This document shows positions 8,401 through 64,000 of a stretch of 64,000 bases of DNA, one piece after another. A program made the translations under genes and the position numbers. Every line of letters begins with the position of its first letter. The first letter of the stretch is position 1. Origin of the DNA: Psammoneis japonica (taxonomy: Eukaryota); contig QPGO01000142.1 of assembly GCA_008632985.1 (NCBI GenBank), forward strand, positions 124,001 to 188,000, given 5' to 3'. Under the pieces are notes generated by a model that saw nothing but the letters and a program-made list of their open reading frames with translations, ran no database searches and was not told where the DNA came from.

Positions 8401-8444
8401 CCTTCCATCTTTGTGAGGATGATTGAGACTTTCTCAAGTTTGCA

Positions 8445-9135: not shown

Positions 9136-9194
9136 TCTACTCTCTACGAGTAGTGCTTCTGTACATTTTAGATTTAGAAGTATGAAGGAACTCT

Positions 9195-36400: not shown

Positions 36401-36880
36401 GCAGCTGTCACATGCCATGATCATCACGCCCAAAACAACCCCTGCAGTTCAGCATTCACACTTTTGCCTCTGAGCACTTCTTGACATTTACCCATGATGT
36501 GCTGATTGCTTGCATGTGCACAAACTGCCTGCGCCTCAGAGCAGCATCATGACTTCACCGCTGGCTGGGCAGCTTTTCTGTGCGCACCGTCTCTCGCTGG
36601 TGGTGCACTCGCCATGCTGGAAACTTTTCAGCACTGACACATCAGAGCAGCCAGAGCCACGTTCTCTGCTCCACTCTGCTGGAGAGGGCTGTGTCTGTTG
36701 TCAGTCCTCCAGGGCTTTTTATCCTTTGTGGCAGAGGAAAAGCACGAGCTTGGCGCTTGGCACATTTTGTGTGCACTCGGATCTCACTTTCGCGCGAGCG
36801 CCGCGGTGTCGCGCGACTCGAAGATCTGCCGCTCTGCCCTCTCGCCCGCCTCGTCTCTCGCGTGTCGACGATGAACGATG
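33460..36880. other. TpA/CpG-depleted block of unidentified decayed sequence
   Basis: Same dinucleotide signature as the other blocks. Ends at a CpG-rich patch (36790-36880) upstream of the thioredoxin gene. Confidence 0.85.
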
Positions 36881-39734: not shown

Positions 39735-39769
39735 GCTGGAAACGTGTCCATATGGGTTACGACATTGCC

Positions 39770-43021: not shown

Positions 43022-44399
43022 TATCTTCCGTGTTCTTGTGGAGGAAGCACGGGAATTTTTCCCGTATCGAAACAACCGGGTTGTTGCATGGTACGTCGCG
43101 TTTTTGATAGATTTATGCAACAATACAACCGAGACCATGCCGTCTAAAAAGTATTACAAGCCAACCTTGATAGCACTCACGTTATTTCTTGGCGGGGTGA
43201 CTTGTCAATGTGAACAAGACTTCACCAACCAGAGGCCATTCAAACAACCCCCAACGATGTCGTGGTGGATGGGTCTAAAGGCGCATGGAACGCCCGAACC
43301 AGGCGACAACAGCTTGCCCATGCAAGCAAGGTCAAATTGGTTGGAACACTGGAGGAAGCCGATTTCCAGCTACATGTCAAACCGGTTGGTGCCGTGGAAT
43401 GTTCTGTCAAATCAAGGCAACCCGACACGATCAACTGACGCAAAAAACCCCGTGCCATGTTTGACATTCATGTTTGATGTTCTTGTTACATGCAGTGCGT
43501 GTCCAGGGCTTCATTCTTCCTTGTTCAATCCACAACATCGCTGGAGCGCCCCTTCCAATTGAAGCATCATTTCTGTGCGCACGGCATCCAACAAATCCAT
43601 CTGCACAGAATGGAGTTTTGCACAACAAAACCAAGCCTCTTGGATTCCTTGTACAATTTCCATTGATGATGAAACAAGAATCGCGAAAATCGGCCCAAGG
43701 GATGTTGAGATATCACCGCCGCCAACTCTTCACCATAAATTCCAGTGGCAGCTCAATTTTGATCATTCAACGACAAGTTCTGAAGAGAAAGTCAGCACCA
43801 TAAAAACCCAAGCCCCGTGGACACCTCACAGCACACACGTCAAAACAATGACAAGAAGTGAGAAACAACACCAAAGATGCAACAGCACATCACAAAAATC
43901 CGTCATGTTGATGCTGCATTCTCACAATTTCTGCACTGCACCTTCAGCGACAAATCCGCCTCGACGGATTGAACTCAACGCCAGCACCACTGGCCCATCA
44001 CATTGCTCGCATAAAAGCTCCGAATGCTGCGAAAAGAAACGGGAAAATACGGCAAAAACAGACATAGATGTCAGCGACGCAAGGGAGGCCATTGTCGCGA
44101 TCGTTTTCTTTTTTGGTTGTCTTCGCAGCTGCGCGTCTTGGAGGGTGCTGCAGGTTGATGTAGCGGAAGTCGGTGTCTGTGCTTTCCTGGTGACCCTGTA
44201 GAAGAAGTGCCAGACCCTACGCAGTTGCACCCAGGGTTGTATTCTTTCCGTCTACCTCCACAGCACTGCAAACTGAGGGGGAAAATAGGGGGGGTGCCGA
44301 CGGAAGAAGAGGGGGGGAGAGGGGGAGCGAAGCGACCCCGTTGCTGCTGCAACGAGTCAAGGAAAAATTCAAGTCAGAAGTGTAAAAAACATGCCAGAG

Positions 44400-44575
44400 C
44401 CTGCGCCACCAGTGGCGTAGAATGGTTCAGGGTGCACACAAATTTTGTGCCACAGTGGCGTGCGTGATTTTGACATGAGATTCTACATGCGCCTGGTGGC
44501 GTAGACCCAGTGCAAAAGCAACAAATTTTTGAAGTTTTGTGGCATACAAAGTCAGCATGTTGTGGCGTAGATTCG
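44400..44575. repeat. Cluster of GTGGCGTAG motifs (probable transposon subterminal repeats)
   Basis: gtggcgtag at ~44412, 44496 and 44562; variants gtggcgtgc (~44455) and gtggcatac (~44539); inverted ctgcgccac at 44401. Confidence 0.5.
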
Positions 44576-46050
44576 ACATCAACAAGACTTCGCGCAACAC
44601 TCGCAACATTCAAGACAACAGACAACCGCTCGCAAAATCTCGCTCCCACTTTACACGTTGCAGCTGATGTGGTGTTGTTCATTCGTCCCACTCGTTTTCA
44701 TCGTGGAACCTCCTGATGACACAGGGTGTCTTTCAGGCATGTGCATCGGTCTGATTGCCCCCCCCCTCTTTGGGCAAGAATGGGGTGTGTGGTTTGCTTC
44801 TTGAAGACACCAGACCAGCCACAAGGAGCTTGCAGTGGAGAGCTGGCAAGCAAAGCACTGGGCTGCGCCACAAGGCACTGGCTGATGGGACAGCATTGGG
44901 CAAGCACAACTGCAAGCATTTTCCTGAGGGCACTTTGCACCACATGTGACAAAGCCAGAAACATGGACTGTGAGAAACACATGCAGAGCCAGGTTTTGCT
45001 CAGCTGGCCACCCAGAATTCAAGCAGGGGTGCAGCCGGAATGAAGAAGGCTGCAGGTCAATTTGAGGTCCCAGTGGGAACTTGCTTTGCATGTTTGTTAA
45101 CAGCCTGCTGCAGAAGCCGTGGCTGCACTGGAAACCCAAAGGTGGCGGTGCGTGATGGGGTGGATCTTGCAAATTCTCTCAAGATTTTGTGGTGCACGGG
45201 GCCAAAATTTGGGTGCAGCATCCACAGATGCTTTGGGAGAGATGCTGTGAATTCGTCAAGGCAGGCACTTCTGACAGCATGGGTGGGGAAGGCCAGTGCT
45301 TGTTGCCAGGGATCTTTGTGAAGATCTTTTAAAGAGGATGACACTGCGTTTTCTCACTTGGAAACTTCAGAGAATTGTTTGGGCACAGTGCTGGGGCCAA
45401 ACCCGCCAAAGTGTGCACTGAATTTTGGAGAACAAAGAAGACACAGATCCGCGGCAGTGGCCACCAAGCTGGCAGGGCAAGGCTTGGAAAACAAGCTGCC
45501 CAAAAAGCCATGATGGGCTGGCAGCAAAGCACTCCTCACAAAAGATGCTGCTGTCAAGCTGTGCCACAGACTGGCACAACTCCACAGTTCTCCAGCACGC
45601 TGTGGGAGCTTTGCTGCCAAGCATGTAAAACCGCAGCACCTCAAGTCACAGACAAGCTGCTTTGCAGGCAGAAGCCCAGCCAAGGGCCGCAAGTTGACAG
45701 CCCCACAGCGTCTTCTCTTTTTCTCCTTTTTCCTTCTTTTCCTCTCTCTCTTCTCCTTTTCTCCTTTTCAGTTTGTTCTTCTGGGCTGCCTCCGGCGGCC
45801 ACCTCTTTCATTCTTCCTACATGCCAAAATCTCCAACAAGAGAGAAGGAAGGAAGAGAGGAGAAGAATGCAGCAATGGCGGAAGTGAGTGCAAGATGCGA
45901 GACGTTGTTGCGTTTTCGTGGCGTCGAAGACAGAGGACATCAGCCCATCGCGCATAAAAAGATACGAAGGTTGATTTTATTTAGGCGGCATCGCCCCCCA
46001 TTTCCCATCTTCCATCTTGTCCTTGATTCGAGATGCAACATGGGACAGAA

Positions 46051-49000
46051 TCACAGTTGCAATGATGTGTCTACATTTGCAGGCTGCTTTGATGAGCAAT
46101 GATGTGGTGCTCTTCCTCGAGCAGCCACCCCCAACAAGTTTGTTTTTGAAAGGTGAAAATCTCGTGCTCGGAAACAACAGAATTTTTGAGTCAGACCCGA
46201 CTGCAGATTCGGCGGCATCTGCAACGGTGGCAAAAATGTTGGCAAACTGGTCCAAAGAGGAATCGGCACGCAACATGGAAGGGGTCATGGCACAATCGGC
46301 ACTGGTGTTGGCTTTCGTGGCAAGACCACCTCCTCTTGCAAATTGGAAGGTTTCATTTTTTTGGCGCGCGGTTCCTCAGACGGCGGCGGCTGCAGTGACT
46401 TGGATTTTTTTTGAATGGGTTCTCCATGATCGGCATCGGGTTGGAACGAGTCGAGTGTGGATTTTTTGTGCCACACTTGTTGCACATGCATCTGTCCGAA
46501 TCTTTTTTGGAGGATGCTGCTGTCGCGCCGGCGGGTGCCTTCCTCGACTCAAGCTCCTCTCTCAAACGTTCAAGTTGCTTTGGGCAAGCTGAAAAATGTT
46601 GCTCTCCATTGTCCTGTGCTAGCTCTCTAACGTTCTCATGCACAGGATGTTGAACTCCAGCTTTTTGGGCCAGCTTGTTGTTGCAGTCGAGGCGGCTGTG
46701 ATTCAGAAAGGTGGGGACGCCTCGAAAGGCGTGCGGAATCTTGGCGCGCTCGTCAGCCGTCATGTCATCAACTGGGAGACGCTGTCTTGTTCCTGTGTTG
46801 TGCTCGCATGTTCCAGCAAGACAGAGAGCATCAATGAGGGTGCTTCTGGAACCGGTGTTCCCAAAATGCTTGACGACGTGATGGCATTTTTCTGGCTTCG
46901 ACTCGGTGCCTGTGGTGGTGACGCACGTGTCTAGCTTGCACTTCGACCATTTTGAAGGGTGCACAACACGGTGCAAGTCTTGACGCGCAAGTGGCTCGTC
47001 AAGTCCACGAGCTGACGCTGTTGCATTTTGCACTGCCAACTCAGTGTCTTCCATGAAAAGGGGCTTGCCAGAATCAGGGTCATGTCGTCCGCCGGCTTCA
47101 GCTGCTCCAGGAGACGCCGTGCACTTGTGGCGATTGAACCACGCCTCAAGATTTTTGTTTCGAGTTTCTAGAGGGTAAGTCCACCTTCGTGTGCACTTGT
47201 TGTAGTTCTTCCATTTCTTGCTGTTCTTGACATCTTCAATTTCTTCCCTTGCATTCTTCTTCCCACCGAGTCTCCCAAAGACAAGTGCATCGACCACACG
47301 CGACTCGTCAGATTCGTCGTTGCATCGTGCACAGTCCTTCAAATCACGGACTGCACGACAACAATCAACATGAGTGGCCCGCAGTGTGTGAACAATTTGG
47401 TTGGTCCAGCGCCAAAGGCCAAGCCGACGTGCAACATCCTGACCAAAAATTTGTTTCCAAAATTCTTCTTTGTTTGGCCAGGTGTCCGAGTGGTGAACGC
47501 GAGGCTTCACGTTTGGACGTCGAGCAAATTGCTCCGCGGCATGTGCGTGATCTTTTGTTTCAAGTGTTGGCACAACTGCCGCCACTCCAATCTCCCCCGT
47601 CTCACTTGCCATGGTGAACAGTCCCTTGCCATCCGCTTCTCTGTAATTTTTCAGTTGATCAAAAGTGTGGTCTGATGCGACACTTACACGACAACCAACG
47701 GACTGGATTTCTCTGGTGTGCCGCATGTTGTCGCTGATGCCAGTCTCGGTAAGATCTGACTTGCGCACAGCATCGTGCACGTCGCGCACATTTTGTCCTG
47801 TTGGCCCATGTCGACCCATCCAGTCCTCAAATGCTGATGATGGGCTTGTTGCGTCGCTGCCAGCATCAACCGACTGCAAAAAATGCCGCTCTTCCCTGTC
47901 AAGAAAATTGCGTCCTCGTTGTTGATGCAAGAAGGCGGGTGTGTCGTCACCATTGCTGCACTTCTGCATGGAGTGGTCGATGCATCGTGTCGTTGGTGAG
48001 GTTAGATGAAACGATGGATTGGCGTCAGCATGACGTAGATCCACGGGATGACAAAGTTGCAGATGTCTTGGAAGCTTTTTAAGCAGCTTGGCGTCATTGC
48101 CTCTGCACTTGCAACCGCATTTATTGCATTTGTAGCACACAGACGTTCCCCAATCAGCAGTGCCACTTACATCAAAGATTGGAGTCGGCGAATGCTCCCT
48201 CTTGATGTCAAACTGTTGATGGATCATCTCACCATCTTCGCACCCATCAACACAAGGCAAGCAGACACCAAGCACAACAAGTTCCCAATGGAGAATGTGG
48301 ACAGTCACTCCTTCAATCTCGGCATGCATGGCATCAGGAGCCATGGATGCATCATCCCGAGGCACGGCAAATGACATGGTGCCGGCAGGAAAGTTCTTCT
48401 GGTGCCATTTCAATTTCTTGGCATTCACGTCTCCACCCATGATCTCATTCGAGTTGGCATGAAACCGAGATGGACACAAGTCCAGAAGACACACAATCAA
48501 AGCCTGAATGGGCGCGGGACAAGGAATCTTCTTTTTTTTGCACGTCTCAATTCGTTTCCGGATCTCTCTCTTTAGCACCGGTGGAGAAAGAAGATCTTCT
48601 TCAATGTCATTGTTAGAATGCTCCGTGCCATTTGACGTGACAGTGCTGATGGCAGCAGCAGCAGCAGCATTCGCACTCAACGTGACAGTGCCAGCAGCAG
48701 CAGCATTCGACGAGACGGCGGTTGCAGACGGCTCAGTGTTTTTTGAAGCCCTGGTGCGAGAGCAAAAGAGTGTCTCCATGCCTTCCTCAGTTGGAGCCTG
48801 ACAACCCGGTGGCTTTTTTGCGTTCTTTCTTGCGCCACCAGTGATGAAGCGATGGACAGCCGCGTTTCGCTCGGTGCTCATGTTCTTTCCACAGTGGATG
48901 GATTTTGGGCAGGTCGTGTCATGACCCTTTTTGTAGGACGGCCCTTGTTTGCACCTTTTGCACTCAACAAGCTTCTCTTGAGCAGTGTGACTGTTTGGCA

Positions 49001-49070
49001 GAGTCAGAATTTGCGATTCTGCCTCTGCCGCCGGTGATGTTGCAAACCGAGGCGCATTTTTCCCCGACAA
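46051..49070 (-). mobile_element. Zisupton-like (KDZ group) transposase, heavily missense-mutated; C-terminal FCC..RGR..H..C motif in a shifted frame
   Basis: YKCNKCG..DAKLLKKLPRHL (DUF6729-like), SDHTF, ETGEI, SDTWP, DPDSGKPLF and GTESKPEKCHH..F occur in Zisupton order. Only 5 Tyr in 905 aa. Termini not found. Confidence 0.7.
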
Positions 49071-50824
49071 CTTAGCGATTCCAGAAAAAGCTCGCTCCTT
49101 TGCTTTTTTCGTGGCTGCCTTTCAAGTCTGAGACTGAACACCCATGGTGCTGGGAAGCTTGCGGGAGCAATGCTTCTCCATTCTGCTGCAATTCCTTCTC
49201 TCAGAACTCTCTTGTGCAGGTCGGCACTGATGATGAGTGAGATGAAAAAAGACTGGAGGAGTTTGAATTTTGTGTGTGGTGTCTTTGTCAGAGCGCAGGT
49301 GCTCAGACTGTGGTGCATCCGTCTGAGATGGATGAACCGAGGTGGCTGTGTCTGAGTTGCATTGATCGTCAAGCAATGATGATGTGCATTCTTTCAGAAA
49401 GCCCCAAGCATTGCAACGTGTGTTCTTGGAATGAAGCGTTCTGATTGGTCCAATCTTCCATCGGCAGGGGGCTTTCGTCGGAGGGGCTACGTGGCCAATG
49501 ATCGATGACGTCACAGCATCCCTGCGCCGCCGCGTGCATTGTCTTCTGCATTGCCGCGAGCTTCAGACAACGTTGCTGAGGCAGGTTTACTTGTCTGAAG
49601 CTTGCTGTGCATTTGGCATTTTTGGCTCAAGTTTCAAGTGCCTCTGTGGAGTGTGTGTTCTCTCAGTTGAAAAGGACTCTCCAGAACTCCCAGTGCCAGG
49701 CCCTGCACAAGCGAGGGATTGTGCGCCAAAGTCCTGCGCAACTTTCTTGAGGCCCGCATGTTTGAATGACTGAACAACAAGCACCATCACTTGCTTGAGC
49801 AGGTGACAGCTGCAAATGCATGCAACATTGAGTTCTGTGGCTGTCACTTGTTTCCAATCACTTCTGTGCAGCTGCTTGCTCATCACAAGTGTGTTTCAAT
49901 GTTTCGGTGCAATGCCACATAGAGTCCTGGTGCGTTTCTGCACATTGGTGCATTTTTGCACATTTCCCAGAAACTCAAAAATGTGCCCTGCACATTTAGC
50001 TGGTCCTTGACAGTGCTGCATGTTTGCCATGCAGCATTCCAGCATGAGAAGGTGTTCTCACCGGAGATTCTCGCCTCTCAACCTTTGGGCCGACACTGGC
50101 ACAAACGGCAAACCGGGCGGTGCCACAGCAGCAGCACGCACAGCAATTGCTCTCTTGGTCTGAAAACAGTCCATGCATTTTTCATCACTGAGCACAATGA
50201 GCAATGTGAGGGAATTTGTTTTCTGGCACTCACTCACCACCTGGTGAGGGAGACTCCCCAAAGGGCCCCAAAGGGGTGCAGTTGGACACCACTTGAATGT
50301 TTGGAGCCCTCTGGCATTTCTTGACATGCAGTTGAAGATGGGCTGCATCATGCTTTCCAATGAGTGTAATGAGTGGTGTGAGGGAACTTGCTTTCTGGTG
50401 CTCACTTGCCACCTGGTGAGCAAGACTCCCCAAGGGTGCAATTGGACCACTTGAGTGTTTGGAGCCCTCTGGCATTTCTTTCAATTAAAGGTGGGCTGTG
50501 TCATGCTTTCCATGGCCTGAAGCTGGCTGATTGCTGTGAGTGTTCAATCAGAGAACAAATGATGTGGACACAGTGAAACAAGTGACTCAGCTCAGCTGGA
50601 GCAGTGTGTGGAGAGACATTCTTGCATGTGCACAATGCTGTCACCTTCATGTGTGGGTGCTGACGAATGTCGCCACAGTGATGTGGTCACCAATGGGTGA
50701 GGCAACCAGGGTGTGGAACTCATGCACACTTGGAGTTGCCACAGTGTGCCAAACATGACCAGCTCTCCCTCTCCATTTTGCTGAAAATGGCTGACAAAAC
50801 TGCAACCAGAATGTCTGCCACAAC

Positions 50825-51172
50825 AGCTCTGGGGCATCAAGACATGAGATGCAGAAACATTGAAAGGAAAGACACTTTTGAATCCTGGTGTGGCACAGAA
50901 CAATGATTCTCTCTCAAGAGAGATGATGCACCATCACTTGTCCCCTGTGCATTGTTTTTTGTTTTGTTCTCACCCTTTGGAGTGAGTCATTTGGTTTGCA
51001 TGATTTGTCTTTCAGCATCAGGAGGTGCCTGTCATGTCGTTGGTTTGAAGATTGTTCTGGCACCACAGGCAACCCCCATGGCCACTGCAGACTGCTGAGG
51101 CAAGTGCAGAGAGAGTGTTGCAAAAGACCTTGCAGGATTCCCTTTTGGTGACATTGACTTGCTGGTTCAACA
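50825..51172 (+). repeat. 5' LTR of the Copia element (start approximate)
   Basis: Homologous to 57768-58116; both end ...gacttgctggttcaaca. Confidence 0.75.
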
Positions 51173-54100
51173 TTCACTCCAAAGAGGCTCAAGCAAAAAT
51201 GGCAAGTGCTTGTAACTTCTGGCCTGCATGCAGCCAACAACTGAACACTGAGACCCTGCACTGTGAGTGGCATGGGAGGTGACAGGAACCAAGTCTGAGA
51301 GGTTGTGGCCATGGAAGAGGTGACAAACATCACAGGTCTTTCAATGCAAACACAAGTGCCACATTGAAGAAATCCCTGATGGCACCCAATCTGTCAAAAG
51401 GAGGCAGCCTGGAGAAGGTGCAAGAGAAAAAGCAAGAGGACAAAGAGCTGCAGTGCAAGCACAAAGTGGAGCTGCATGACTGCCATGTGAAGGCAAGGCA
51501 GTTTGATGAGAACAAAGCAACAACATTCTCCAAGATGCTGGATGGCTTTTGCACCAAGCAAATGAGGCAGAGAGTGCAAGATGATCCAACCAATTCAACA
51601 ACCAGGGCTGATCCAATCAAGCTGTTGAAGCTGATCCAGACCCTTGCATTCAACTCAATGAGAGGCCAACATCCATTCTGTGCACTTGTCAAGTCTCTGA
51701 AGAACATTTTAGATGTGAGACAACAAGAAAATGAAGGAACAGGCAATTGCTCATCAACATTTAAGAACCAGCATGACACTGCGAGCAAAAGGCCAGAAAA
51801 AATGTCAGATGGATTGGTGTTTGAGACATGGGTGACACATCTGTTCACAGAGAACATTGGTGATCACTGTTGCAAGAGCCTCAAGGAGAGCTTCATGAGA
51901 GACTGCAATCTGGGCAAAGACACCCTTCCAAAGACTCCAGAGAAAGCAACAGATGTGTGACTGAAGCAACCATCCAAAGGACAATCATCCCCAAGCAATC
52001 ATGTCAGGAGAAGAAATGACAGCCAAGGAGGCAATGAGAAAGACAATGGCAACAATGACAGCAAAAATGACAAGGGCCAGAGCCATGCCCAGACAAGAAA
52101 CCAGGGCAACACTGCACAATGTGCCACTGCTGTGGCAACAATGTTGCACATGGCAGTTGGTTTGAGGCTGCCAGAAGGAAACTGGACATTGGGGGACAGA
52201 GTCATGCACAGACTCAGAGTGGAGAAGAAGACCATTCATTGGTGGAAAGCAACAGCACAAGCATTGACATCACAAGATCTGACAGACTGACCCATTCCAG
52301 CCAAAGCAAAGGTCATGCATGGAATGGGCTGCACAGCTGGCAAATGAGAAACCGCAGAAGAGAGCATGAACCAGATGACGTGGTTCCAACTGTGGAATGG
52401 AATGCCACAGGGTGTGCACCAAGAGGGAGGCAGCTGACACTGAGTGAGCACTCATGTGTTGTGGAGTGTGAGAAATTCAAAACAATTTTGCACTCAAATC
52501 AGGTGAAGAATCTGTCAATTGTGCCTGAAGACATGGACAAGATGGTGGCAATTTGGGGACCACCACCAGATGTGACAAAAGGCAATGCCAAACACATGCA
52601 TCATTCCCACAAGAGGAATGACATGACAGTGATTCCACCTGACTGAGTCTCATGAGAATCAGAGAGGCAATGTGACTCTCTGCATTGGCATCATGGAAGC
52701 GTGCACAGTCATGAAGATGCAGCGCAAAATTGACAAGACAATCAAGAACCAATCAAGTGTGACACTGAGGTCCAAGAAGCACATTGATGTTTGGTGCAAC
52801 GCACTGGACACAATCCTTCAACAGCACTGCATGGCTTCATTCAAGATTTTGTGAAATGCAATCCCAAGTTCATGAAGATGCTGGCAAAAGTTGCTGATGG
52901 CATGAACCTGGAACTGCTTTCCACAAATGCTGTGGAGCATGTTCTGGAAGTTGAGCAGAGCATTGAGACTGTCAAAGAATGAACTTGTGCCACTGTGCAT
53001 CACCTGCCACACAAGACAACACCCAAATTGCTGTGCAAGCATGCCATCACAGAGACCACTGTCATGACAAACGTGTGCCTGCAGAAGGAAGGAATTTCCA
53101 ACAAGGGCAGATTGAAGAAATGTGTCTGATGGAAAGGACCAAGGATGTGGTCATGCTGATGTTCCTGTGATGGAGAAACAAGATGGCAGCACAAAAGGGT
53201 GGATGGTTGGAGGTGGGGAGCCAACAAGAAAATTGGCCAAACAAGGATGAGTCAGCCAGTCTGACAGCATTGTTCATTGGAGTCATGATGACTGCAACTG
53301 TCAATGCCATGAGGAAGAGTGTGATGAAATGACTGCTGATGTGCCAACTGTGTTCACACAGACACAAGTGACAGATTCAGACTGAGGAGGGTGAAAAACA
53401 GATTGTGATGAAGATCACAGTAAAGTTGGTCAACTTGCCAGTGAGCATCAGCTCCAGCCTGTGTGAACCACATGTGGTCCTGGAAAACGAGCATGGAGTC
53501 CTCTGCATCCAATTCATCAGAGCAATTTGTGGCATGTTGGTCACAGCTCCACCATGGTGCAAACAGCTTCAAAAAGACTTTGAGAAAACAGGGTTTAAGT
53601 TCAACCCATGCAACCCATGCACTGTCAACTGGGCAGTCAATGGCAAGCAGCAAACTGCCTGTTTCCTGTTTCCATTTGAACAACCTGATGTTGAGCCACA
53701 AGAACCCAAAAGCAAACAACAAGTTTCCAAGCTGGCTGAACAAAATGTGTGGAAGCCACATGGCAAAGTCATTGCAACTCAAGGAAAAAGGCATGAGTGC
53801 CTGGGGATGACCCTGAACTTCAGTGAAAAGGGCAAGGTGAAGGGCAGTGTGACTGACTGTGTCAAGAAGATGTCAGACATCAGCTCCTGGAGAAGATCAA
53901 GAGTGCAGATGTTGCCATGGCACCAGCTGGAGAAAAACCATTTGAGGCTGGTGGGGTGATGTTGCCGACCAACAAAGCAGAGACACACCACACCTGGGTG
54001 GCCAAGGGGCTGTTTGCATCCAAGAGAGGCCACACAGATGCACACCCCACCATTGCAGCATTGTGCACGTGAGTCAAAGAGGAGCCTGCAAACAAAGATT

Positions 54101-57100
54101 GGGACAATTTGGTCTGCTGTTTAAGACATTTGAGTCAGACACAAAATGAACAGTCACTGCATTTGGTGCAGATGGCTTGCAAACAACAAAGTGGTTTGTG
54201 AGTTCACCATTCATGGTGCACTCAGCTTTCAAGCACCACACACAGGAGGAGTTGTGACAATGGGCAATGGAGCACTGCAGGCCATGTCAAAGTGCCAGAA
54301 GGTCAACATGACATGAACCAGCACAGAGGCCAAACTTGCATGAATTGATGATGTGCAATTGATGGACCATGATCCTTTGGACAAAGTGTTGTTCATGGAG
54401 CACCAAGGGCATCCAATTGACAAGAACATCCTGCATCAGGATGACAAGAGCATCGTCATTCTGTTGGAAATGAATGGGCACAGGAGGGCAGACAAGAGAT
54501 CCAGAGCACTTCACATTTTGCATTTCTTTGTTGCCAATCAGATTGAGAAGGGCAGCTTGAGAGAACACAGCATTGCCCAGCAGATGATGTGCTTGGAGAC
54601 TTCATGACAAGAAAGCCATTGCACATCAAGAAGTTTTGCAAGTTCAAGCAAGCCGTTGTGGGTGGCAAAGAACAAGCATGACAGGAGTGCATCCTGTTTG
54701 TGACATCAGATGAGAACTCTGATGCATGTGGGTGAAAGACACCCCTGTTCAATGAGAGATGGGCAACAGTGCCTCAGATTTGACAGAACACAATGCACAA
54801 CATCAGCAATTTGTTCATCAACAACAGCCATCAACCATGAGTGAGTGAGGTCAATGAAGCAGTGAAACTCAATGATGAGTTGGGCACACTCTGTGATGTG
54901 ATTGTGCAACAGTGCTCAGAAAATTGCTGGAAAGATGTGATGGCCATGACGGGTGTGTCACAAATGCCAAGAGACAGTTGTTGAGTGCAGATGTTGACAA
55001 GAGAATGCCAAGGGCTTGAAATCCACATTTCAAGGAAACAAGTGATGAACCAACACAATGGCTTGGGGGCAACAAGAGCCAATTGAGTTGTGACCCTTGC
55101 ACCCACCATCATGATGTTTTGGATGTGCGCCAGATGATTCTGGCAATGAAGGACAGCAGAAGGAGTCAGGTGTTGCAGCATGACTAGATCCCATTCTTGC
55201 AGGTGGGCTGGGGCATGCCCTGTGTGTCAAGAGGCATGAGCCAACAAAGATTGCATGTGAAGATGTTTGCAAGTGGACTGATGAAACACAAATGCATGTC
55301 TGCCACTGCACTGATGTTTTTGTTGTTGCACATGATGGTCTGAGTGCACCACACAAGATGGCCACCATGCACCAATGGAGCTTGCACAAAATCAAGGAGC
55401 TTTGGCAGATTGGCATGTGCTGAGCCTCAAGGCAGGGCAAGGTGTGCATCTCCCACCATGGGACTTGATCGTTTGTAGATCGACGGCCGCAACGTCGATC
55501 AAGATGAGAGTGCAGTCACACCACTGTCAAACAGTGCTCATTTCGATGGTTGTGCTGGATTTCTCGGCAATGTTGACTGTTGTGCCGCATTTGGACACAC
55601 CAACAAGCAGTGTGTTTGCTGACTTTTTCTGCAGGGCTCTCACGACCGCTGCATGAATGAGTTTGCAATCACCAGGTTTGCCTCCACTGCAGATGATGTG
55701 ATGACCAGTGTCCAAGGAATGCACACGTGTGGGCAGCATCATTTTTGTTTCTGCTGTTTCTCATGACAGATGCAGAAAATGACATTGTGATTTCCAATGT
55801 CGACAATGCACCGTGTGCGACATGGAAAAGGAACAATGGAATGTTTTTTTTTCAAAGAGAGAAGAGGAGCTAATTTGTGTGGTGAGTGCAGTTGTTGGAC
55901 GCTGCAAACAATTGTTGGCACCTTGTTTGGAATGTTTTTTTCTTCCCTGTCAAAGCGACAGCAGCAATCACAGCACCTTGCTCATTTTTGCCCCATGGTG
56001 TCAATGCAGCTTGGCTGCGTGATGTGGCACGTGGTTTGCTTTATCACGGGACAGTGCGTGAAACCAAAAGTGCAATGGACAGGAGCTCCGAACCATCGGC
56101 GATCGGATCTGGAACCAGCTCGTCGAGCTCGTTCCAAATCCGTGCTCAAATGGATCGGAGCGGCTGTCCTTCGTTGCGTCTGTACGTCGTCCGCACGGAA
56201 ACTAATTTTACCACCATTGGACACTCTAACTGGCCAACCACCCCAATGGGCAATGAAGCACAGAAGCTCAACACATGAAACAGCACAGAGGCCAAGCATG
56301 CAGGAGTTGACAATGCAATGACCATGATCCTGTGGATGAAGTTGCTTGTGGAGCACCAAGGGCATCCAATTGACAACAACATCCTCACTCAACATTTGGC
56401 AGTTTTTTGTCACACCAGCCAGACTGAGAAGGGCAACCTGAGAGCACAGCACTGCCCAGCAGATGATGTGGTTGGAGATTTCATGACTGAGCCCATGTGG
56501 GGCAAGAGGTTTTGCAAGTTCAAGCAAGCTGTTGTGGGTGGTCAAGGATGAGTTTGACAGGAGTGCATCCTGTTTGTGACATCAGAAAAGAGTTCTGACA
56601 CATGTGGGTGAAAGATCCCTTTTCAACGAGAGATGGGCAATGCCTCAGACTCAACAGAACACAGTTTGCAACACCATTGATTTGTTCATTTAAGAGCAGT
56701 CATCAACCATGAGCAAGGTCACCAAACAATGCAGCTCAATGACAAGCTGGGCACACTGCATGACATGCTTGTGCAACAGTGGCCAGAGAGCTGCTGGAAG
56801 GATGTGATGATTGCAATGGAGACATTGCATGATGCCAGCAAATGGCTGTTGAATGTGGACATCAACAAGACAATGTTGAGGGCTTGGAGCCACACTTTGT
56901 GACAGCACATGATGAGCTGACACTGTGGCTCAAGGGAGGTGAGAGCCAACAGAGTTGCAACCCTTGCATCCATTGTGACATTTGGATGTGCACCAGATGG
57001 TTCTGGACACAAGAGAAAACAGAAAGAGTCAGCAGTGTTGGCACAGTGAGATCCCACATCTGCAGGCATTGAAGAGAGTGTGTGAAGATGTCAAGAAGTG

Positions 57101-57767
57101 GGCTGATGAAGCCACTGCCACACCAATGTTTTTGACACATGATGGTCCAAATGCACCACAAGAGATGATGGAAATGGATGGAATGTGCACAAGACCAAGG
57201 AACACTGGCAGATCATTGGATGTTGAGCCTCAAGGCAGGGTGAAGCATGTTGTCATCACTGCAGGAGCCACACAATGAGAGCAACAAGCACATGATTGAT
57301 GATGAGCACATTGCAGGTTCCAGGGGGCAGCAAACTGAAGCTGGTCCTGGACAGAACTGACATTGCAAAACTGAGTGAAATGTTCATGGTCAGTCATCCT
57401 GCACTTGACACAAGCAGAAAAGGCCCACTTGTGAAGCTCAACCCCAGGTGCCCGGAGGACACAGTGAGTCAGCATGGACTCACATGGGACAAGAGTGGCA
57501 TCATTTTTTGTGACAGAGAGAAGTCAGTGTTTTTCTTTCATTGTGTGGAGAATGTTCAAGACAGCACAGATGTGCTCAACAACACAGTTGATTTCTCTGA
57601 TGGGAGATGGCATGCCTGCATGCACCTCTGTGCTCTGTCTGACTAAGAAGAAGTCAGCATGGCAAGGCACTGAGAGAACCACGTGTGGGCATTGTGTGGC
57701 AGTTGGAACTGCTTGCAAGCAGAGTGGATGAATCAGTGGTTGAAAACATCAATGCAAGTGGGAGGAG

Positions 57768-58116
57768 TGTGTTGGGACATGTCAAAATGTGAGACCTGGA
57801 AGTGTTGAAAGGAAAGATGCTTTTGGATCCTGATGTGGTGCAGAGTGATGATTGGTGTCTTGGACAAAAGATTCACTGTTGCAAATCCCCCATCTGTTGT
57901 TTTTGTTTTGTTCTCACTCTTTGGAGTGAGTGAGTCATTTGGTTTGTGCAATTTGTCATTTGGCATCAGGAGGTGCATGTCACATTGTCAGTTTGAAGGT
58001 TGTTCTGGTGCCATGGGCAACCCATGGCTGCCACAGACTGCCAAGGCAAGTGCAATGAGTGTCACAGGAGACCTTGCAGGACTCCCTTTTGGCAACACAG
58101 ACTTGCTGGTTCAACA
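57768..58116 (+). repeat. 3' LTR of the Copia element
   Basis: Starts TG after the purine tract ggaggag and ends CA. Shares ttgaaaggaaaga, ttgttctcac.ctttggagtgagt and gcatcaggaggtgc with the 5' LTR. Confidence 0.75.
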
Positions 58117-59349
58117 GCTTGGTCATGTCACTCAGGTCAAGTGAGGCCTTGAGAAAGGCCACTGCATCCTTCTCATGAACATGATGATGGGAACCACACT
58201 TTGGACACTGCAGACCACCCAAAGTGGTGGCACTTGACTTGGTGCAGCATGATTGGCCAGCTGCACAACAGGTCATTGTGGTGGGTTCCTCAGGGTTGGG
58301 TGGGTGAGTGATGGTGTCCATTCTTCAGTCATCCTTGAGATGTGCCAAAACACTCTTTGCAAATGCTGGCAGATCACCCTGCTTGGCAAAGTGAGTGAAA
58401 AGGCCTGCAGCCTGGCAGGTCTTGCTCTTCTGGGTGGCAGCACCAACAACATGGGTGCCAGTGGCAATGATGATGGCACCTTGAGGGGGGCTGACAGGTC
58501 AAAGCCCAGCCAGCTGGCCTTGAGCTTGTCTCTGGTTCATGCCACATGACAAAAGGATCCTGCCGGCACCAGCTCACCATGTTGGGGACAGGAGGGCTGT
58601 GGGAGTCCAGCAAACCTTGTGGCCATGCAGTGCATGATTTGGCAACAAAATGATGACACCAACTCCTCATTGTCCAATGACTTGCAATCATCATGGCATC
58701 AAGGCAGAGGTGGTGCGGAGTCATCATGAGCATCCTCAGCATCCAGAGGAGGAGGGTCCTTGGCATCCTGAGGAGGCAGAGGATGATCTTGATGGGGTGG
58801 ATCCTCCCTGCCCCATGACATCAGGGTCATCCGCCACTGCACTCACATTGCAAAGCATTGGTGCAAACCAATTGTCTGGGGGATTCTTTCCCAGAGAATG
58901 CTGGCTCAGAGAGTTGTGTCTTGAGCCTCAGGAGGGCCATGGAGTGGAGCAGTGCCTGAGACAGTGGCATGTGTGGCAGATGCAATGATCTGACAATCAA
59001 CATTTGGTGGGCCCAGACTTGAGGAAAACTGCTGGTGGAGCCAGTGCGGAGCACACAACAAAACAAGCACAGAGTGCAACCCCCAGGTGTTGCTCTGACA
59101 GAACCAGAGCCAAAGGCAGATGCTCTGGCTTTTGGGTGTCCCCAAACTGAAGCACACAATGGGTTGAGTTGCATCAATTGGGCGACGATGCAACCACCAG
59201 CTAAAGCTTAACACCTCAGACTGATGGTGGAGCGCAGACAGTCTCTGCTGATGAGCAGCAATGCAGTGTTCGGTCAAAAGCACATCACAAACAAAGCTGG
59301 CCAGTGCCTCAACCCACTCATCTAGAATCTGCTGAGTGCAAATGCGTTG

Positions 59350-59740
59350 CGTGTGACATTGGGCCCACAGAATTCCACGTGCGAGATCCACAGCAAAAGT
59401 GTCAAGCAATGAACACACATGAGTCATCAGCAACAGAAAATGAGGCCATTTTGGGAATGTGTCTCCTCCTCCACACTTCAAGTGCACCACTTGCAGTTTG
59501 CCTGGGTGTGTTCTTCAAACATTGGAGAATGTGTCTGGCCCATTTTTGCACTCACAATGAAGAAAATAGAAAGCCTTTGGTTTTGCAAGGCACAAAGCAT
59601 GAAACAATTTTGTAGAAAATCACATGCAGAAATGCACATGCATGATGTGGGATGTGATCCAAAAAACTGTTGATGTCACAGTTCAGCAGCATGAGGTCCC
59701 ACCCAGAGAGCTGGAACGTGTCCGCAGCTCCACAAACCAC
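59350..59740 (-). repeat. Inverted copy of the 23895-24290 dispersed repeat
   Basis: Reverse-complement alignment by eye; homology stops at tgtgaca in both copies. Confidence 0.8.
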
Positions 59741-59750
59741 AGCGTGAAAA

Positions 59751-60500
59751 TCCATGCCATCTGCTGGTGCACTGGAGGCAACACCAGTTTCCTGACAATC
59801 AACCCAACACCAAAAAGAACCAAAAATGGTCTTGTGACACTCATGGGGGCCAATTGTTGTCAAGCTGTGGGCTCTGGCAATTTAGACCAATGTGGCAGAA
59901 TTTTGGAAGGAAAATCATCTCTCACAGATTTGACGGACAAACAGACAGATGAAAGACAGTGTCAATTGGCAGAACAGTGTGCAAGTGCTGTTTGAAGCAG
60001 AGCCATGCACTGTTGCTGCTCAAGATCTGGTGACACACCTGCACCCATTTTGTTTGATGGCAGCCGCAAGCAGAAACAAAACGAGCACGCACCTCAAATG
60101 TCCATGCCATCTGCTGGTGCACTGGAGGCAACACCAGTTTCCTGACAGTCAACCCAACACCAAAGAGAACCAAAAATGGTCTTGTGACACTCATGGGGGC
60201 CAATTGTTGTCAAGCTGTGGGCTCTGGCAATTTAGACCAATGTGGCAGAATTTTGGAAGGAAAATCTCTCACAGATTCAACGGACAAACAGACAGATGAA
60301 AGACAGTGTCAATTGGCAGAATGGTGTGCAAGTGCTGTTTGAAGCAGAGCCATGCACTGTTGCTGCTCAAGATCTGGTGACACACCTGCACCCATTTTGT
60401 TTGATGGCAACCGCAAGCAGAAACAAAACGAGCACGCACCTCAAATGTCCAACTTTTTGAGTTGCCCGGAGCTGACCCTTGTGTGTTGAAGTTTTCTTGA
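59751..60500 (+). pseudogene. 3' relic of an ankyrin gene paralog, with a near-identical 350-bp tandem duplication (59751-60100 / 60101-60449)
   Basis: WQNGVQVLFEAEPCTVAAQDLVTHLHPFCLMA versus WQNGLEILFEAEPRAVAARDPVTHLYPFCLAA in the intact gene at 39540-39734. Confidence 0.9.
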
Positions 60501-60784
60501 GCTTCAAACCTGTCTGTTTGTGGGTTTCGATGTCACCTCAAAGATCTCCTTGACCATGCCACGATCTGTTCCAACTTGCTGCAGCAAAGAAATTGTTCTC
60601 TCTGCTCTCTAGCTGCTCTTGTGTCCTGGTGGCATCAGGTTGTGATGCCACATCTTCATCCTCTCAGTTTGAGTCATGGGGTGACACGGGATTGAGTTGA
60701 TGCGTGCACGCCTCGGCCTCCTCGAGAAAGACAAGGCTTGTGAGGCTCATAAAAACACATTGTCGTTGCAACTTAAGAAGAACA

Positions 60785-62014
60785 ATGAGCACCTGCAAAA
60801 TGAAGCAACGTGAGACCAACAAGCAGATCGAGCTGCTGCGATTGAAGAATCAAACAAACGAACTGGAATCAGCCATCAGAAAGGGAACATCGATGATTTT
60901 GCCACTCATCCCGCCCGGCAACGCCCAGCTCATTCGTGCCACCAAGTTGCTCAATGACGAGTTGCGAGTGGCCACCAACATCAAATCTCGGGTTTAACAG
61001 GCAATCTGTCCAGAGCGCCATCAAGTCGGCTCAGCAGCGACTCAAGCTCTACAACAACAGGTGCCCAGCAAATGGCCCAGTCGTCTTTTGCGGTCTTGCC
61101 GAGGTGCAAGACAGTCGAAAGGAAAGGATGACAACTGTTGATCTTGAGCCCCCTCAACCAGTCAAATTCTTTCTTTATCGCTGTGACAATCGTTTCCATG
61201 TGGATCGCCCAACTTCATCATGTGTTGAGGAAGGTGAAGAGCCATGCGGTTTCATTGTCGTGGATGGCAACGGGGCGCTCCTTGGTTTGCTGCAAGGGTC
61301 GCGAAGAAGAGTTTTGCACAAGTTTTCAGTCGATCTTCCCAGCAAGACTCATCGCGGAGGACAATCGGCTTTGCGTTTTGATCGGATCCGAGTGGAAAAG
61401 CGAAACATTTGCATGCGCAAGGTCACCAAGTTGGCCATGAATTCTTTTCTTTCTCACGGCGACCAGCTCAATGTGGCCGGTCTTGTCCTTGCTGGAAAAG
61501 CAGACTGCAAAAATGACCTTGTCCAGAGCAGCCACTTCAGGCGTCTCTGCGCTCATGTTGTGGCTTGTTTGGATGTGTCGTTTGGAGGAGAACGTGGATT
61601 TGATCAGGCAATCGACAAAAGTGCTGAAACGATCGGATGCGTCACGCTGGTTCGCGAAAAGCGTCTGTTGGAGAACTTCTTTGAACACGTCGAGTGCGAC
61701 ACAGGAAAGCATTGTCACTCCGCAGAGGAAACCTTGCACGCTTTAGAAATGGGAGCCGTGAAAGATTTGATTGTATGGGACGGTCTTGATGTGACCCGCT
61801 GCGAGATGCAAAACAAAGAATCAGGGAAGCAAGTGGTTTCCTTTTTCTCCAAGTTGCAGGAGGAAACAAAGAGCGTCGATTCGTTTGCAGTTGCCAAGAC
61901 AGAACCACTCCTTGATTGGATTGTCGACCATTGCAGTAATTTTGGTTGCAACTTGGAGCTAATGTCAGACAGAAGCGGAGTCGGAAAACAGTTTGCCGCA
62001 GGATTTGGCGGAAT
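60785..62014 (+). pseudogene. eRF1 pseudogene copy B (frameshift at ~60995, 3' truncated)
   Basis: GTSMI, ATNIKSRV, LYRCDNRFH, RGGQSALRF, DVSFGGERGFDQAI, ALEMGAV. An extra T in gtttaac creates a stop. Confidence 0.92.
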
Positions 62015-62335
62015 TTTCGTTAGCAGTTAGGGGTGTCTATGGGGTCGTAAGGGACAACGGTTGTCCCATTCTTGTACGCTGTATTTTCAGCCAAATATCA
62101 TATCATGTCTTCAGTGAATTATGACTCAGCAATCCCCAATTATGACGATGCAACATTTAACAACATCAACATCCTTTCTGGCAATTATGACGCATCATCA
62201 CTTAACACTGCCAAAATAGAAATGGAAAATGGACAGACGCAGTGGCGGGAAAACTGCATGCGTGCATCAACGCATCATCAACCATCACCACACCGCGGCG
62301 ACACCATGGCCACTCGGTTCCGTTCATACCGCCAC

Positions 62336-62686
62336 GCTGGGATGATAAGACGGGTAAGAGCATTCATATAAGGTAATGTAAATGCCTCCAGTTTTATGGT
62401 GGTATTTTTTATTTGATGACTCCTCAAAGTTATTGTGTTATTTTCTATTTTCTACCAGTGCAGGTGGTTGGTGTTTTTTCTCTGCCGCCGACAAGATCGT
62501 TCATGAATCGACTGGTACTGGCGTGATAAGACGGGTGAGAGAATTTACAAAGGTAATTTAAATGTCTCGAGTTTGATGGTGGTATTTGTTATTTGACAAC
62601 TCCTAAAACTTATTGTGCTCTTTTCTATTTTCTACCAGTGCAGATGTTTGGTGTTCTTTGTTTTGTTCTCTGCCGACGACAAGATC
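62336..62686. repeat. Tandem duplication, unit ~180 bp, each unit with an intron-like ggtaat...ttctaccag segment
   Basis: gataagacgggt, atggtggtattt, ttttctattttctaccagtgcag and gacaagatc each occur twice. Confidence 0.8.
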
Positions 62687-62974
62687 ACGGCGGACAATCA
62701 GCCTTGAAAAGACACAGATTAGTGGTTAGTTGGCACCATCAGGACTTTGCTCCTCTTTTCAATGAATTGAATATTGGTTGACTACAATACATTAGCTCTA
62801 GAAGAAACCCTCAGGTAGGAGCATGCACCATGCGACCACGTTTGCCTTTGTACACATGATGCTTCCGGCCCTCACACCAAAACTGTTCTCTTCTTTAATG
62901 CAGATGCTACTGGCTATGGAGTGTGCATTGCTGCCACTGGATTGCTAACAAAAAATTGATTACAATACATTAAT

Positions 62975-64000
62975 TCACTCTAAAAGAATCCCGCGGTGGT
63001 TTTTTGTGCATGGAAAGGTATGCACGACGCGACCGCGTAAACCGTTTTGCACATAATGCTTCCGGCCCTCACAGCAAAATTCTTCTTCAGTTCTTCTTCT
63101 CTTCTTTGATGCAGGTGCTGCTGGCTCTGGAGTAGGGATTGCTGCCGCAGAATTAGCTACTTGCAGGTTGGTGGGGAAGCAAAATAGTGGACTGACAAAC
63201 GAACCAACGCTTGTTTCAATCCATGGCGATGGCGGCGTCGGAACCGGGCGGAAGGGCGATGATGGGAGTTTGTGGAGAGTTGTTTCCTGCTTCAGAGTCT
63301 CTTCATACAAAATGTCTTCCACTATTGACTCAAAGTCTGGACCAAAATATTCAAAATCCGGCGGATCAGCAACTCCAACATTGTCGGTCAAGCGTGCCGT
63401 CGTATCGGTTGGACCGACGAGCGAGTGATTCGGGTTCAGCAAAGGTGGAGTTTGTAAGCCAGCATCTGGTGTGGGAGCCAAGCAATGCAAAGGATCCACA
63501 GCGGGGATGCTTTCCCACAAATGGTCTAAAACCGAGTGGCCCAGCAGTCCACCGCCCTCTTGAGTTGCAAGAAATGTGTTCTCCAATGGACCCCTCCTGA
63601 ATAAATTGTTTTTGCATTCCTTTGGCAGCACCAGAAGGAAATTGGGTTGCACCTCTTTCAAAACCCGAACAGTCAGTTCATCTGGTGGATGGCAATTGGA
63701 AGCATTCGGATTTCTGTGGCACGTCGCATCGTGACCCTTCTTGCAGCTCGGTCCCCTCACACACCGTGGGCACATTTTTGCACCAAAGTCAACTCGAGTG
63801 AGCACGTTCTTTCGTATTTCTTCACTCTCATTGAACAGACAGCATGCACATCTAAACATTGCTTGTTCCTGTTGCTGGGCATGATTCGCAAACCCATTCC
63901 AGCAAGTCGGCGTGTTCTGTTGAAACATGTTTAACTTTGAGGAAGACGGCGTGGGTGCTCCTTTTTGCACTCGTACCCATTTTGACAAAGAGCAGAGCCA
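62975..64000 (-). CDS. Zn-motif protein related to the termini of the Zisupton-like transposase (frame open to the window edge)
   Basis: CPRCVRGPSCKKGHDATC and FCCEGRKHYVQNGLRGRVVHTFPC match motifs in the 46-49 kb element. A degenerate duplicate of its 3' end lies at ~62822-62935. Confidence 0.55.
   Translation of the reverse strand, partial: WLCSLSKWVRVQKGAPTPSSSKLNMFQQNTPTCWNGFANHAQQQEQAMFRCACCLFNESEEIRKNVLTRVDFGAKMCPRCVRGPSCKKGHDATCHRNPNASNCHPPDELTVRVLKEVQPNFLLVLPKECKNNLFRRGPLENTFLATQEGGGLLGHSVLDHLWESIPAVDPLHCLAPTPDAGLQTPPLLNPNHSLVGPTDTTARLTDNVGVADPPDFEYFGPDFESIVEDILYEETLKQETTLHKLPSSPFRPVPTPPSPWIETSVGSFVSPLFCFPTNLQVANSAAAIPTPEPAAPASKKRRRTEEEFCCEGRKHYVQNGLRGRVVHTFPCTKNHRGILLE

Follow-up and report, generated by a model that had tools for sequence, protein, structure and literature searches.

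We analysed a 64-kb stretch of the genome of the diatom Psammoneis japonica (64,000 nucleotides of contig QPGO01000142.1, positions 124,001 to 188,000; hereafter the window) and found long tracts that are depleted of the dinucleotide 5'-TA-3' (TpA) and enriched in TpG and CpA. We consider it likely, at a probability of about 0.8, that a TpA-specific process acted on the DNA itself, in place and within sharply bounded tracts, that this process is of the same kind as the hypermutation reported in the chlorarachniophyte Bigelowiella natans (Mettrop et al., bioRxiv 10.64898/2026.01.13.699255), and that adenine deamination is its most likely chemistry. In the mechanism we propose, nearly all T:A pairs in 5'-TA-3' would be converted to C:G, giving TG or CA according to the strand hit; the two strands would be hit independently and adjacent genes left untouched; and the tracts affected would be diverged repeats, transposase-like genes and duplicated pseudogene fragments. 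The spectrum of the changes, their polarity, context and block structure, and their independence between copies are direct observations. An initial annotation, made from the letters alone, had proposed targeted A:T-to-G:C change at TpA, a process separate from CpG decay whose product is the reverse of that of fungal repeat-induced point mutation (RIP), and polarity, mass balance, independent copies, sharp edges and uncoupled CpG loss all bear that proposal out.

TpA loss in a pair of paralogous copies

The changes can be followed site by site in two copies of one locus:

Copy A, 39541..40709, + strand: end of an intact ankyrin open reading frame (ORF; 38079-39731) and an eRF1-like pseudogene, surrounded by DNA of normal composition
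Copy B, 59959..62015, + strand: pieces 59959-60103, 60306-60541 and 61041-62015, with an ankyrin 3' fragment (in tandem), an intergenic stretch and an eRF1-like pseudogene

By blastn, A 39769-40709 matches B 61041-62015 at 85.0% identity over 985 columns, and A 39541-39773 matches B 60306-60541 at 81.0% and the tandem copy 59959-60103 at 81.4%; the duplication of 39540-40710 described in the initial annotation is therefore real, at 81-85% identity across the pieces of copy B. Only 4 of the 31 aligned TA sites of copy A are kept in copy B, with 12 now TG, 10 CA and 5 changed in other ways, so that 22 of the 27 changed sites follow the pattern first described. Five of the 12 TA-to-TG/CA examples quoted at the time were traced among the 134 substitutions listed between the copies (39567/39569, 39623/39624, 39698/39700, 39806 and 39834). 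By comparison, 860 of 1051 dinucleotides other than TA and CG are kept (82%; Fisher p = 6e-16 against TA). Copy B now holds five TA, four in common with A and one that arose from CA.

The same alignment bears on a candidate named in the initial annotation, Pol eta-like Y-family error-prone repair in heterochromatin, as in the second phase of somatic hypermutation. Pol eta makes A-to-G changes at WA motifs (W, A or T), and TA is its hottest site. Here AA is left alone: 80 of 91 AA sites are kept and only 3 become AG, against 4 of 31 TA sites kept, and normal DNA has an observed/expected ratio (o/e) for AA of 1.17, depleted blocks one of 1.12-1.37. Near-saturation of a single dinucleotide is also unlike a polymerase error spectrum, and the B. 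natans hypermutations, as given in the preprint's main text, all lie at TpA (bioRxiv 10.64898/2026.01.13.699255). Because AA is untouched, we regard error-prone repair as highly improbable.

To polarise the changes, the 358-aa ORF of copy B (60954-62030, with Pfam eRF1_1, eRF1_2 and eRF1_3 matches) was aligned with 14 outgroup eRF1 proteins, the named ones from diatoms, and the codons of copy A were mapped onto it through the DNA alignment. Where a TA change is non-synonymous, copy A agrees with the outgroup at positions 42 (L, 14/14), 83 (T, 13/14), 86 (L, 14/14) and 327 (Y, 14/14). At positions 98 and 255 A has Y where the outgroups have F and B has C and H, leaving A the closer, and only at position 102 does B agree with the outgroup majority (V in 10, I in 4). 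Judged by outgroup eRF1, copy B is the derived copy at TA sites, and the 14 proteins support the direction, TA to TG/CA, that the initial annotation had read from conserved tyrosines. The strings on which it relied were found at LYPF 39621 against LHPF 60039 and 60386, HYSNFG 40630 against HCSNFG 61929, ADDGC 26337 (- strand), NPCNPC 53603 and HECLGM 53792.

The accompanying picture of B as the degraded copy held for TA sites but not for the copy as a whole. Copy A is itself a frameshifted, deleted pseudogene, whose eRF1 lies in three frames with several frameshifts and stops (tblastn with P0004), whereas B keeps its 358-aa ORF. A also lacks 526 bp that B has and carries 20 letters instead (39748-39769 vs 60514-61041); part of the 526 bp codes for an N-terminal piece of eRF1, in a different frame. 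The A-type joined form (the 60514-to-61041 joint with the 20 other letters) is present in contigs of two public sequencing runs, X1 and X2. At non-TA sites A is often the derived copy (W for L, L for Q, L for R, stop for G). Since A has frameshifts, stops and the 526-bp loss, B is not simply the more decayed of the two; its derived changes are specifically TA-to-TG/CA, plus some CG-to-TG/CA.

A tandem duplication of ~350 bp (59751-60451, 97-99% identical) lies inside the depleted block at the start of copy B. Both of its units carry the derived LHPF (60039, 60386), so the Tyr-to-His change is older than this young duplication, which could serve to date the process.

Sharply bounded blocks

Over the whole window TpA o/e is 0.26, CpG 0.58 and CpA/TpG 1.55-1.57. 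This composition is not uniform along the window, and 1-kb intervals fall into two states: normal ones with TA o/e 0.4-0.7 (19-56 TA per kb) and depleted ones with TA o/e 0.00-0.16 (0-11 TA per kb) and CA/TG o/e 1.3-2.3. Using block limits of our own, we distinguished four classes:

Depleted in both TA and CG: 24.8 kb, o/e 0.05 (TA) and 0.12 (CG), CpA/TpG 1.85 and 1.92
Depleted in TA only: 7.8 kb, TA o/e 0.10, CG 0.71
Intermediate: 5.4 kb, TA o/e 0.22, CG 0.78
Normal: 22.2 kb analysed, TA o/e 0.54, CG 0.98, including copy A and host genes

Depleted or intermediate DNA thus amounts to 38.1 kb of the 64 kb, in keeping with the roughly 40 kb first estimated, and the neighbouring genes are normal (TA o/e 0.54), as had also been stated. 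The blocks (unstranded) are as follows:

900..9030: depleted in TpA and CpG; internal repeats 6382-6846 and 8446-9108
19200..25000: TpA-depleted; CpG also depleted up to ~23400, normal in 23400-25000
25000..28600: intermediate; TA o/e 0.16-0.30, CpG normal; 433-aa ORF inside
33500..36800: depleted in TpA and CpG; frameshifted LMF1_C fragment at the edge
43200..49600: TpA-depleted, CpG near normal; 43200-45000 intermediate; 922-aa ORF inside
49700..60300: depleted in TpA and CpG; diverged repeats 50860-51172 vs 57805-58116 and 54507-55437 vs 56386-57240
62016..64000: normal flank; from 62021 on, one TA per ~10 bp; spliced record of a gene at 62345-63537

In a 200-bp map and in the exact TA positions the edges of these blocks are abrupt, with four boundaries resolved to tens of bases and a fifth to ~0.3 kb:

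Edge at ~9030-9140: TA at 8961 and 9033, dense TA from 9138
Edge at ~19200: last TA of the run at 19160
Edge at ~33500: TA at 33474, the next only at 33798
Edge at ~36800: TA at 36720, dense TA from 36886
Edge at ~62015: TA at 61937 and 61960, then 62021, 62028, 62038 and onward; copy B homology stops at 62015

The last of these edges ties a block to a unit of duplication. TA depletion in copy B reaches its breakpoint, the last depleted TA being 61960, and ends within 88 bp of position 62015, where it adjoins the gene with the spliced record. Such a sharp end would fit targeting by sequence unit, or by a well-defined chromatin border, better than diffuse spread, and an edge that coincides with a duplication breakpoint constrains models of targeting. 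Targeting probably follows repeat or silent-chromatin identity. The adjoining gene is known from run X2, in which one 954-letter record lies on four pieces of 62345-63537 and skips 62551-62636, 62812-62900 and 63016-63088; it has the look of a spliced transcript from the gene bordering the block. The same gene region also has internal direct repeats. X2 carries A-type rather than B-type pieces, and we draw no inference from its missing cover of B.

Several other features were seen along the map. An assembly gap of 469 N (18520-18988) separates a host bicarbonate-transporter gene fragment (16799-17710, PF00955) from the depleted block that follows, and a short TA-rich stretch (18998-19160) comes directly after the gap. 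Two members of one repeat family, 74% identical and in inverted orientation, lie at 23910-24288 and 59352-59735, each in a different depleted block and 35 kb from the other. DNA of normal composition at 15110-15300 carries a tandem array of 12-bp period, with units such as GGCCCAGGCGAA in at least 11 registers, which probably codes for a repetitive peptide.

CpG loss overlaps this pattern without coinciding with it. CpG depletion is confined to TA-depleted DNA, of which it takes up only a part, leaving near-normal CpG in TA-depleted 23400-25000, 45000-49600 and 60400-62015. Between copies A and B, 47 of 69 CG sites are kept, and 18 of the 22 changed sites are CA or TG (p = 0.01). CG loss in copy B affects 9 of 15 sites in 60306-60541 against 9 of 54 in 61041-62015; its TA loss is uniform up to the breakpoint (5/6, 8/10, 4/6 and 5/9). 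CpG-to-TpG/CpA is a separate process, nested in a subset of the TpA-depleted tracts. CpG decay through deamination of 5-methylcytosine resembles this nested loss (CG o/e 0.12 in 24.8 kb) but cannot remove TpA, and TA loss here exceeds the CG-depleted cores and reaches the block edges.

Independent hits, flanking context and candidate chemistries

We compared seven pairs of diverged repeats that lie within depleted blocks, which together gave 2057 aligned dinucleotide columns with 303 transitions and 128 transversions. CA in one copy faces TG in the other at 67 sites; the next commonest double difference occurs at 8. A direct change from CA to TG needs two substitutions, and descent from a TA or CG ancestor needs one per copy, so the copies were hit after they had separated.

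The overall composition of the blocks fits the same account. If only transitions within YpR (pyrimidine-purine) steps occur, the sum of TA, CG, CA and TG stays invariant, and this sum is 244 per kb in normal, 245 in both-depleted, 238 in TA-only and 250 in intermediate DNA. Both-depleted blocks have lost 81.9 TA+CG per kb and gained 82.5 CA+TG per kb. In TA-only blocks, GC content is 0.505 against 0.475 in normal DNA, which matches a loss of ~31 TA per kb.

TA sites survive very unequally by flanking context, as counted in 32.6 kb of depleted and 22.2 kb of normal DNA:

ATAT: depleted 0, normal 64
GTAC: depleted 1, normal 71
ATAC/GTAT: depleted 2, normal 124
ATAG/CTAT: depleted 4, normal 76
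ATAA/TTAT: depleted 11, normal 121
CTAC/GTAG: depleted 18, normal 110
GTAA/TTAC: depleted 22, normal 111
CTAG: depleted 12, normal 42
CTAA/TTAG: depleted 28, normal 74
TTAA: depleted 24, normal 32

Grouped by flanking purine (R) or pyrimidine (Y), the survivors in depleted against normal DNA number 3 vs 259 for RTAY, 55 vs 418 for mixed contexts and 64 vs 148 for YTAR (chi-square p = 4e-20). The counts fit a model with independent hits on the A of either strand, the rate for each A depending on the base 3' of it; in log-survival units the rates are about 2.5 for T, 1.5 for C, 0.8 for G and 0.34 for A. Expected survivors under this model are 0.7 for ATAT, 5.0 for GTAC and 3.3 for ATAC/GTAT, and the observed numbers are 0, 1 and 2. 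The products point the same way: YTGY+RCAR stands at 44.3 per kb in normal DNA and 58.8 in TA-only blocks, with YCAY+RTGR almost level at 37.3 and 38.0 (Fisher p = 0.003) and mixed-context TA at 18.8 and 3.3 per kb; intermediate blocks behave alike. By these counts the motif is 5'-TAY-3' for an A-to-G change, equivalent to 5'-RTA-3' for T-to-C, with a rate several-fold above that of TAR.

Along the DNA, TG products are mixed with CA products. The A/B pair shows 13 runs against 11.9 expected, with a 12:10 balance, and the repeat pairs show 34 against 35.5 (z = -0.4), so that by runs counts neither contains strand-coordinated bursts. The interspersion and the 12:10 balance argue against a single-strand processive event, and against the editing of a sense RNA followed by reverse transcription. 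An ADAR-like A-to-I editing of RNA, fixed in DNA through retroelement reverse transcription, would share the 5' U preference that the main text of the preprint calls typical of ADAR (bioRxiv 10.64898/2026.01.13.699255). However, copy B arose by segmental duplication of DNA and includes an intergenic stretch, a search of 114 ORFs of the window brought up no reverse transcriptase, and the 3' order seen here, T > C > G > A, is not the G preference expected of such an enzyme. We give this route only a very slight chance.

A DNA-level process leaves the question of which base is modified. The leading mechanism would be adenine-to-inosine deamination by a TadA/ADAT2-type deaminase, which we favour because the T before the A mirrors the U33-A34 tRNA substrate and because the B. 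natans preprint names the same candidate. Duplex data cannot separate A-to-G from T-to-C, and a thymine chemistry, with its context written 5'-RTA-3', fits the data equally well. A TET/JBP-type dioxygenase would then oxidise the T in RTA to 5-hydroxymethyluracil (5hmU) or 5-formyluracil, which would pair with G, and the target strand would be the complement. 5-Formyluracil is mutagenic towards A:T-to-G:C, and the 5hmU of dinoflagellates is enriched at TpA; 5hmU itself, on the other hand, pairs normally with A, and the sole 2OG-Fe(II) oxygenase of the window (13889-14842, PF13640) is of the prolyl-hydroxylase type. We consider thymine oxidation unlikely.

Several observations weigh against in-place deamination at TAY as we describe it. 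The mass-balance and context arguments both assume that depleted blocks once had today's normal composition. At mixed-context sites of the A/B pair, 8 of 11 changes go in the direction predicted from TAY, by itself short of significance (p = 0.23). Among the conserved Tyr codons of the 922-aa ORF described below, four YTAY became YCAY and none YTGY, contrary to the TAY rule; this excess of YCAY could reflect a local strand bias, or selection that favoured His above Cys in a still active element. The 3' order T > C > G > A matches neither ADAR, whose 3' preference is G, nor eukaryotic ADAT2/3, for which anticodon position 35 is G, A or C. Lastly, the reads that support the assembled bases come from run X1, which may be the assembly's own data and so not independent.

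Support from reads had been named in the initial annotation as a check on the claim. Contigs of X1, at depth 31-41, show 0 other letters over seven pieces amounting to about 9 kb of depleted DNA:

Exact X1 contig pieces: 49798-51162; 51157-53723; 54681-55474; 56591-58063; 58045-59379; 60422-60832; 61037-61498

Exact contigs rule out consensus or scaffolding error, but not chemistry-specific error. The many paralogous contigs of X1 differ from one another by 278 transitions and 58 transversions. A sequencing or assembly artefact, whether miscalls at modified bases or chimeric assembly, would draw some support from the possible identity of X1 with the assembly data and from a library type that is not on record. 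Yet transversions and indels of the ordinary sort also separate the blocks from their paralogs, and the amino-acid changes match a pattern in relatives from other data sets, described below. We find an artefact scarcely credible.

ORFs and element families of the depleted blocks

The following features were annotated in the window:

46356-49121, - strand: 922-aa stop-to-stop ORF in a TA-only block; transposase-like repeat family
26082-27380, - strand: 433-aa ORF; weak DDE_Tnp_4 match, 20.2 bits against a cutoff of 24.8
33444-33985, - strand: LMF1_C fragment (PF25179, lipase maturation factor) in two frames; 29.4 and 21.8 bits, below the cutoff of 34.2
13889-14842, + strand: host gene, 2OG-Fe(II) oxygenase (PF13640, E = 1e-8), prolyl-hydroxylase type by Pfam, with nothing linking it to thymine or cytosine oxidation

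We scanned 114 ORFs of at least 110 aa against Pfam (112 distinct ones in or beside depleted blocks, one entered twice, plus one from a normal block). Matches were obtained for 2 of the 114 (113 distinct), both below cutoffs, and the scan found no reverse transcriptase and no viral hallmark; an exact protein look-up matched 0 of 6 window ORFs. Two element names in the initial annotation did not survive the scan: the ORF at 53372-53956, labelled Copia, matched neither reverse-transcriptase nor Copia families of Pfam, even at E <= 5, and the sub-cutoff DDE_Tnp_4 match leaves the Harbinger label unconfirmed. The blocks contain repeats, the transposase-like family, the weak DDE_Tnp_4 ORF and host-derived fragments of eRF1, ankyrin and LMF1_C, the LMF1_C piece being, on its matches, a putative second host-derived pseudogene fragment in hypermutated DNA.

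The 922-aa ORF itself has no Pfam match. It has 864 relatives at E <= 0.001 in a representative library, 198 of them at 1e-30 or better, and 1 of 12 relatives has a weak DUF6729 match in Pfam; Atlas gave DUF6729 and Mutator-like clusters for the family, as leads only. Its Tyr content is 0.54%, against 3.66% in 30 relatives. In 16 columns of conserved Tyr, the ORF has 3 Tyr, 9 His, 1 Cys and 3 other residues; other well-sampled conserved residues are mostly kept, in 61-100% of columns (F, S and K in 38-47%). A second alignment gave 12 His, 2 Cys and 3 Tyr in 23 columns, and three control relatives keep 9/18, 14/16 and 12/20. Two environmental relatives share the pattern: P0325 (0.33% Tyr; 5 His, 3 Cys and 1 Tyr in 13 columns) and P0381 (0% Tyr; 3 His, 7 Cys and 0 Tyr in 15 columns), the 2 of the best 150 relatives with <1% Tyr and >=10% Cys+His. 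Their exchange of Tyr for His or Cys means that the signature exists in other public data sets. Single-protein metagenome scans with the 922-aa ORF and P0325 found no relative.

The process leaves reading frames open. TA-to-TG/CA cannot create an in-frame stop, because TAA gives TGA or CAA and TAG gives TGG or CAG, and TAA plus TAG trinucleotides on both strands fall from 32.2 to 8.2 per kb in TA-only blocks. Open frames such as those of 358 and 922 aa are therefore no evidence of function. The damage done to proteins is missense, from Tyr to His or Cys and from Leu to Pro. Genes predicted in such tracts would be open but Tyr-free pseudo-proteins, and maps of TpA o/e would reveal silenced mobile DNA that Pfam-based annotation misses, as the 2 matches among 114 ORFs illustrate.

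An intact but TA-poor ORF of this kind raises the possibility that low TA content predates the amplification or arrival of the elements, whose families would be adapted to a host factor that targets TA or whose DNA would be foreign with a composition of its own, and that nothing was mutated in place. The 922-aa ORF would fit, as its summed X1 contig depth is ~310-390 against ~32-41 for single pieces (summed depth is not copy number), and the nearly Tyr-free P0325 and P0381 would fit as well. Against this, copy B stems from a locus of the host and the outgroup proteins mark the TA sites it has lost as ancestral, the 67 sites with CA facing TG require independent changes after the copies separated, the mass balance fits host composition, and open ORFs are expected anyway of a process that makes no stops. 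We judge arrival in a TA-poor state to be quite improbable.

Comparison with known systems

In-place mutation of TpA invites comparison with several systems that mutate or edit nucleic acids. AID/APOBEC enzymes are likewise host-encoded, context-specific editors that inactivate mobile DNA by hypermutation. They differ in targeting C, in leaving strand-coordinated clusters in single-stranded DNA and in often making stops; here there is no strand clustering, and TpA changes make no stop. TadA and ADAT2/3, together with adenine base editors, resemble the process in that A-to-I gives A-to-G and the target A follows U or T (U33-A34). Early TadA-derived base-editor variants preferred YAC. The natural substrates of these enzymes are RNA loops, unlike the DNA tracts here with their 3' preference of T > C > G > A, and we know of no natural TadA/ADAT-family enzyme established as an editor of TpA in duplex DNA. 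Should the enzyme prove to deaminate adenine in duplex DNA, it would be directly relevant to base editing.

Fungal RIP, as in Neurospora, shares more of the overall form: transition-only hypermutation of repeats in a dinucleotide context, with sharp limits at the ends of duplications and copies mutated independently. RIP is premeiotic, changes C to T at CpA and so creates TpA, and hits both duplicates. In the window TpA is destroyed (o/e 0.05) and CpA/TpG created (1.85, 1.92), with outgroup polarity to match, and only one copy is hit: copy A is untouched, and 4 of the 5 TA in B are common to A. RIP is excluded as the family to which this process belongs, because its product is the opposite and only one copy is mutated.

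To our knowledge, defence by hypermutation of A:T pairs in DNA had not been described for any cellular system before the 2026 preprint. The initial annotation knew of no description in diatoms. We likewise found no report, in the literature that we searched, of TpA-to-TpG/CpA hypermutation in diatoms; the process itself, by the main text of the preprint, does have a precedent in B. natans. In mutation-accumulation (MA) lines of that alga, 231 of 302 de novo single-nucleotide mutations fell in integrated nucleocytoplasmic large DNA virus (NCLDV) and virophage regions, and 230 of those 231 were A-to-G or T-to-C, all at TpA; the regional rate was ~1000-fold above the rest of the genome, and the mutations occurred in some lines only (Mettrop et al., bioRxiv 10.64898/2026.01.13.699255). 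An ADAT2-like deaminase is the candidate enzyme and defence the proposed role, according to the same main text, which does not contain the words 'CpG', 'diatom', 'flanking', 'context' or 'trinucleotide' (bioRxiv 10.64898/2026.01.13.699255).

The two cases agree in consisting almost only of TpA-to-TpG/CpA transitions in discrete regions, with the rest of the genome normal, so far as the preprint's main text describes B. natans. They differ in several respects. The host here is a diatom, and so belongs to the stramenopiles and not to the chlorarachniophytes; for two of its proteins every named best hit is from a diatom, at 40-53% identity. Hits fall on repeats, transposase-like genes and pseudogene fragments of host origin, with no viral hallmark in 114 ORFs. 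Depletion is deeper, at o/e 0.05-0.10 against the 0.45 given there for the NCLDV region, and the nested CpG loss and the TAY flanking preference are both absent from the preprint's main text. In B. natans, the de novo rate was measured; here the signature is read from sequence alone.

These differences bear on how general the process may be. The B. natans report concerns one chlorarachniophyte, with regions that its main text gives as only about two-fold depleted in TpA; a near-saturated signature in a different major lineage argues for a system that is old and widespread in marine algae. Deep depletion also yields what MA data do not easily give, a strand-resolved TAY preference that constrains the enzyme, and a clear separation from CpG decay. 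It is possible, although we would not rely on it, that diatoms and chlorarachniophytes share an ancient natural DNA base editor that acts at 5'-TAY-3' and marks repeat or foreign DNA with near base-pair precision, driving TpA changes to saturation and causing missense without stops, alongside but independent of cytosine methylation. Such a system would be a defence as general as RIP or PIWI-interacting RNA silencing, and a natural counterpart of adenine base editors. We conclude that the process is not unprecedented: it is of the same kind as that of the one 2026 preprint, now found in a new lineage and with new detail.

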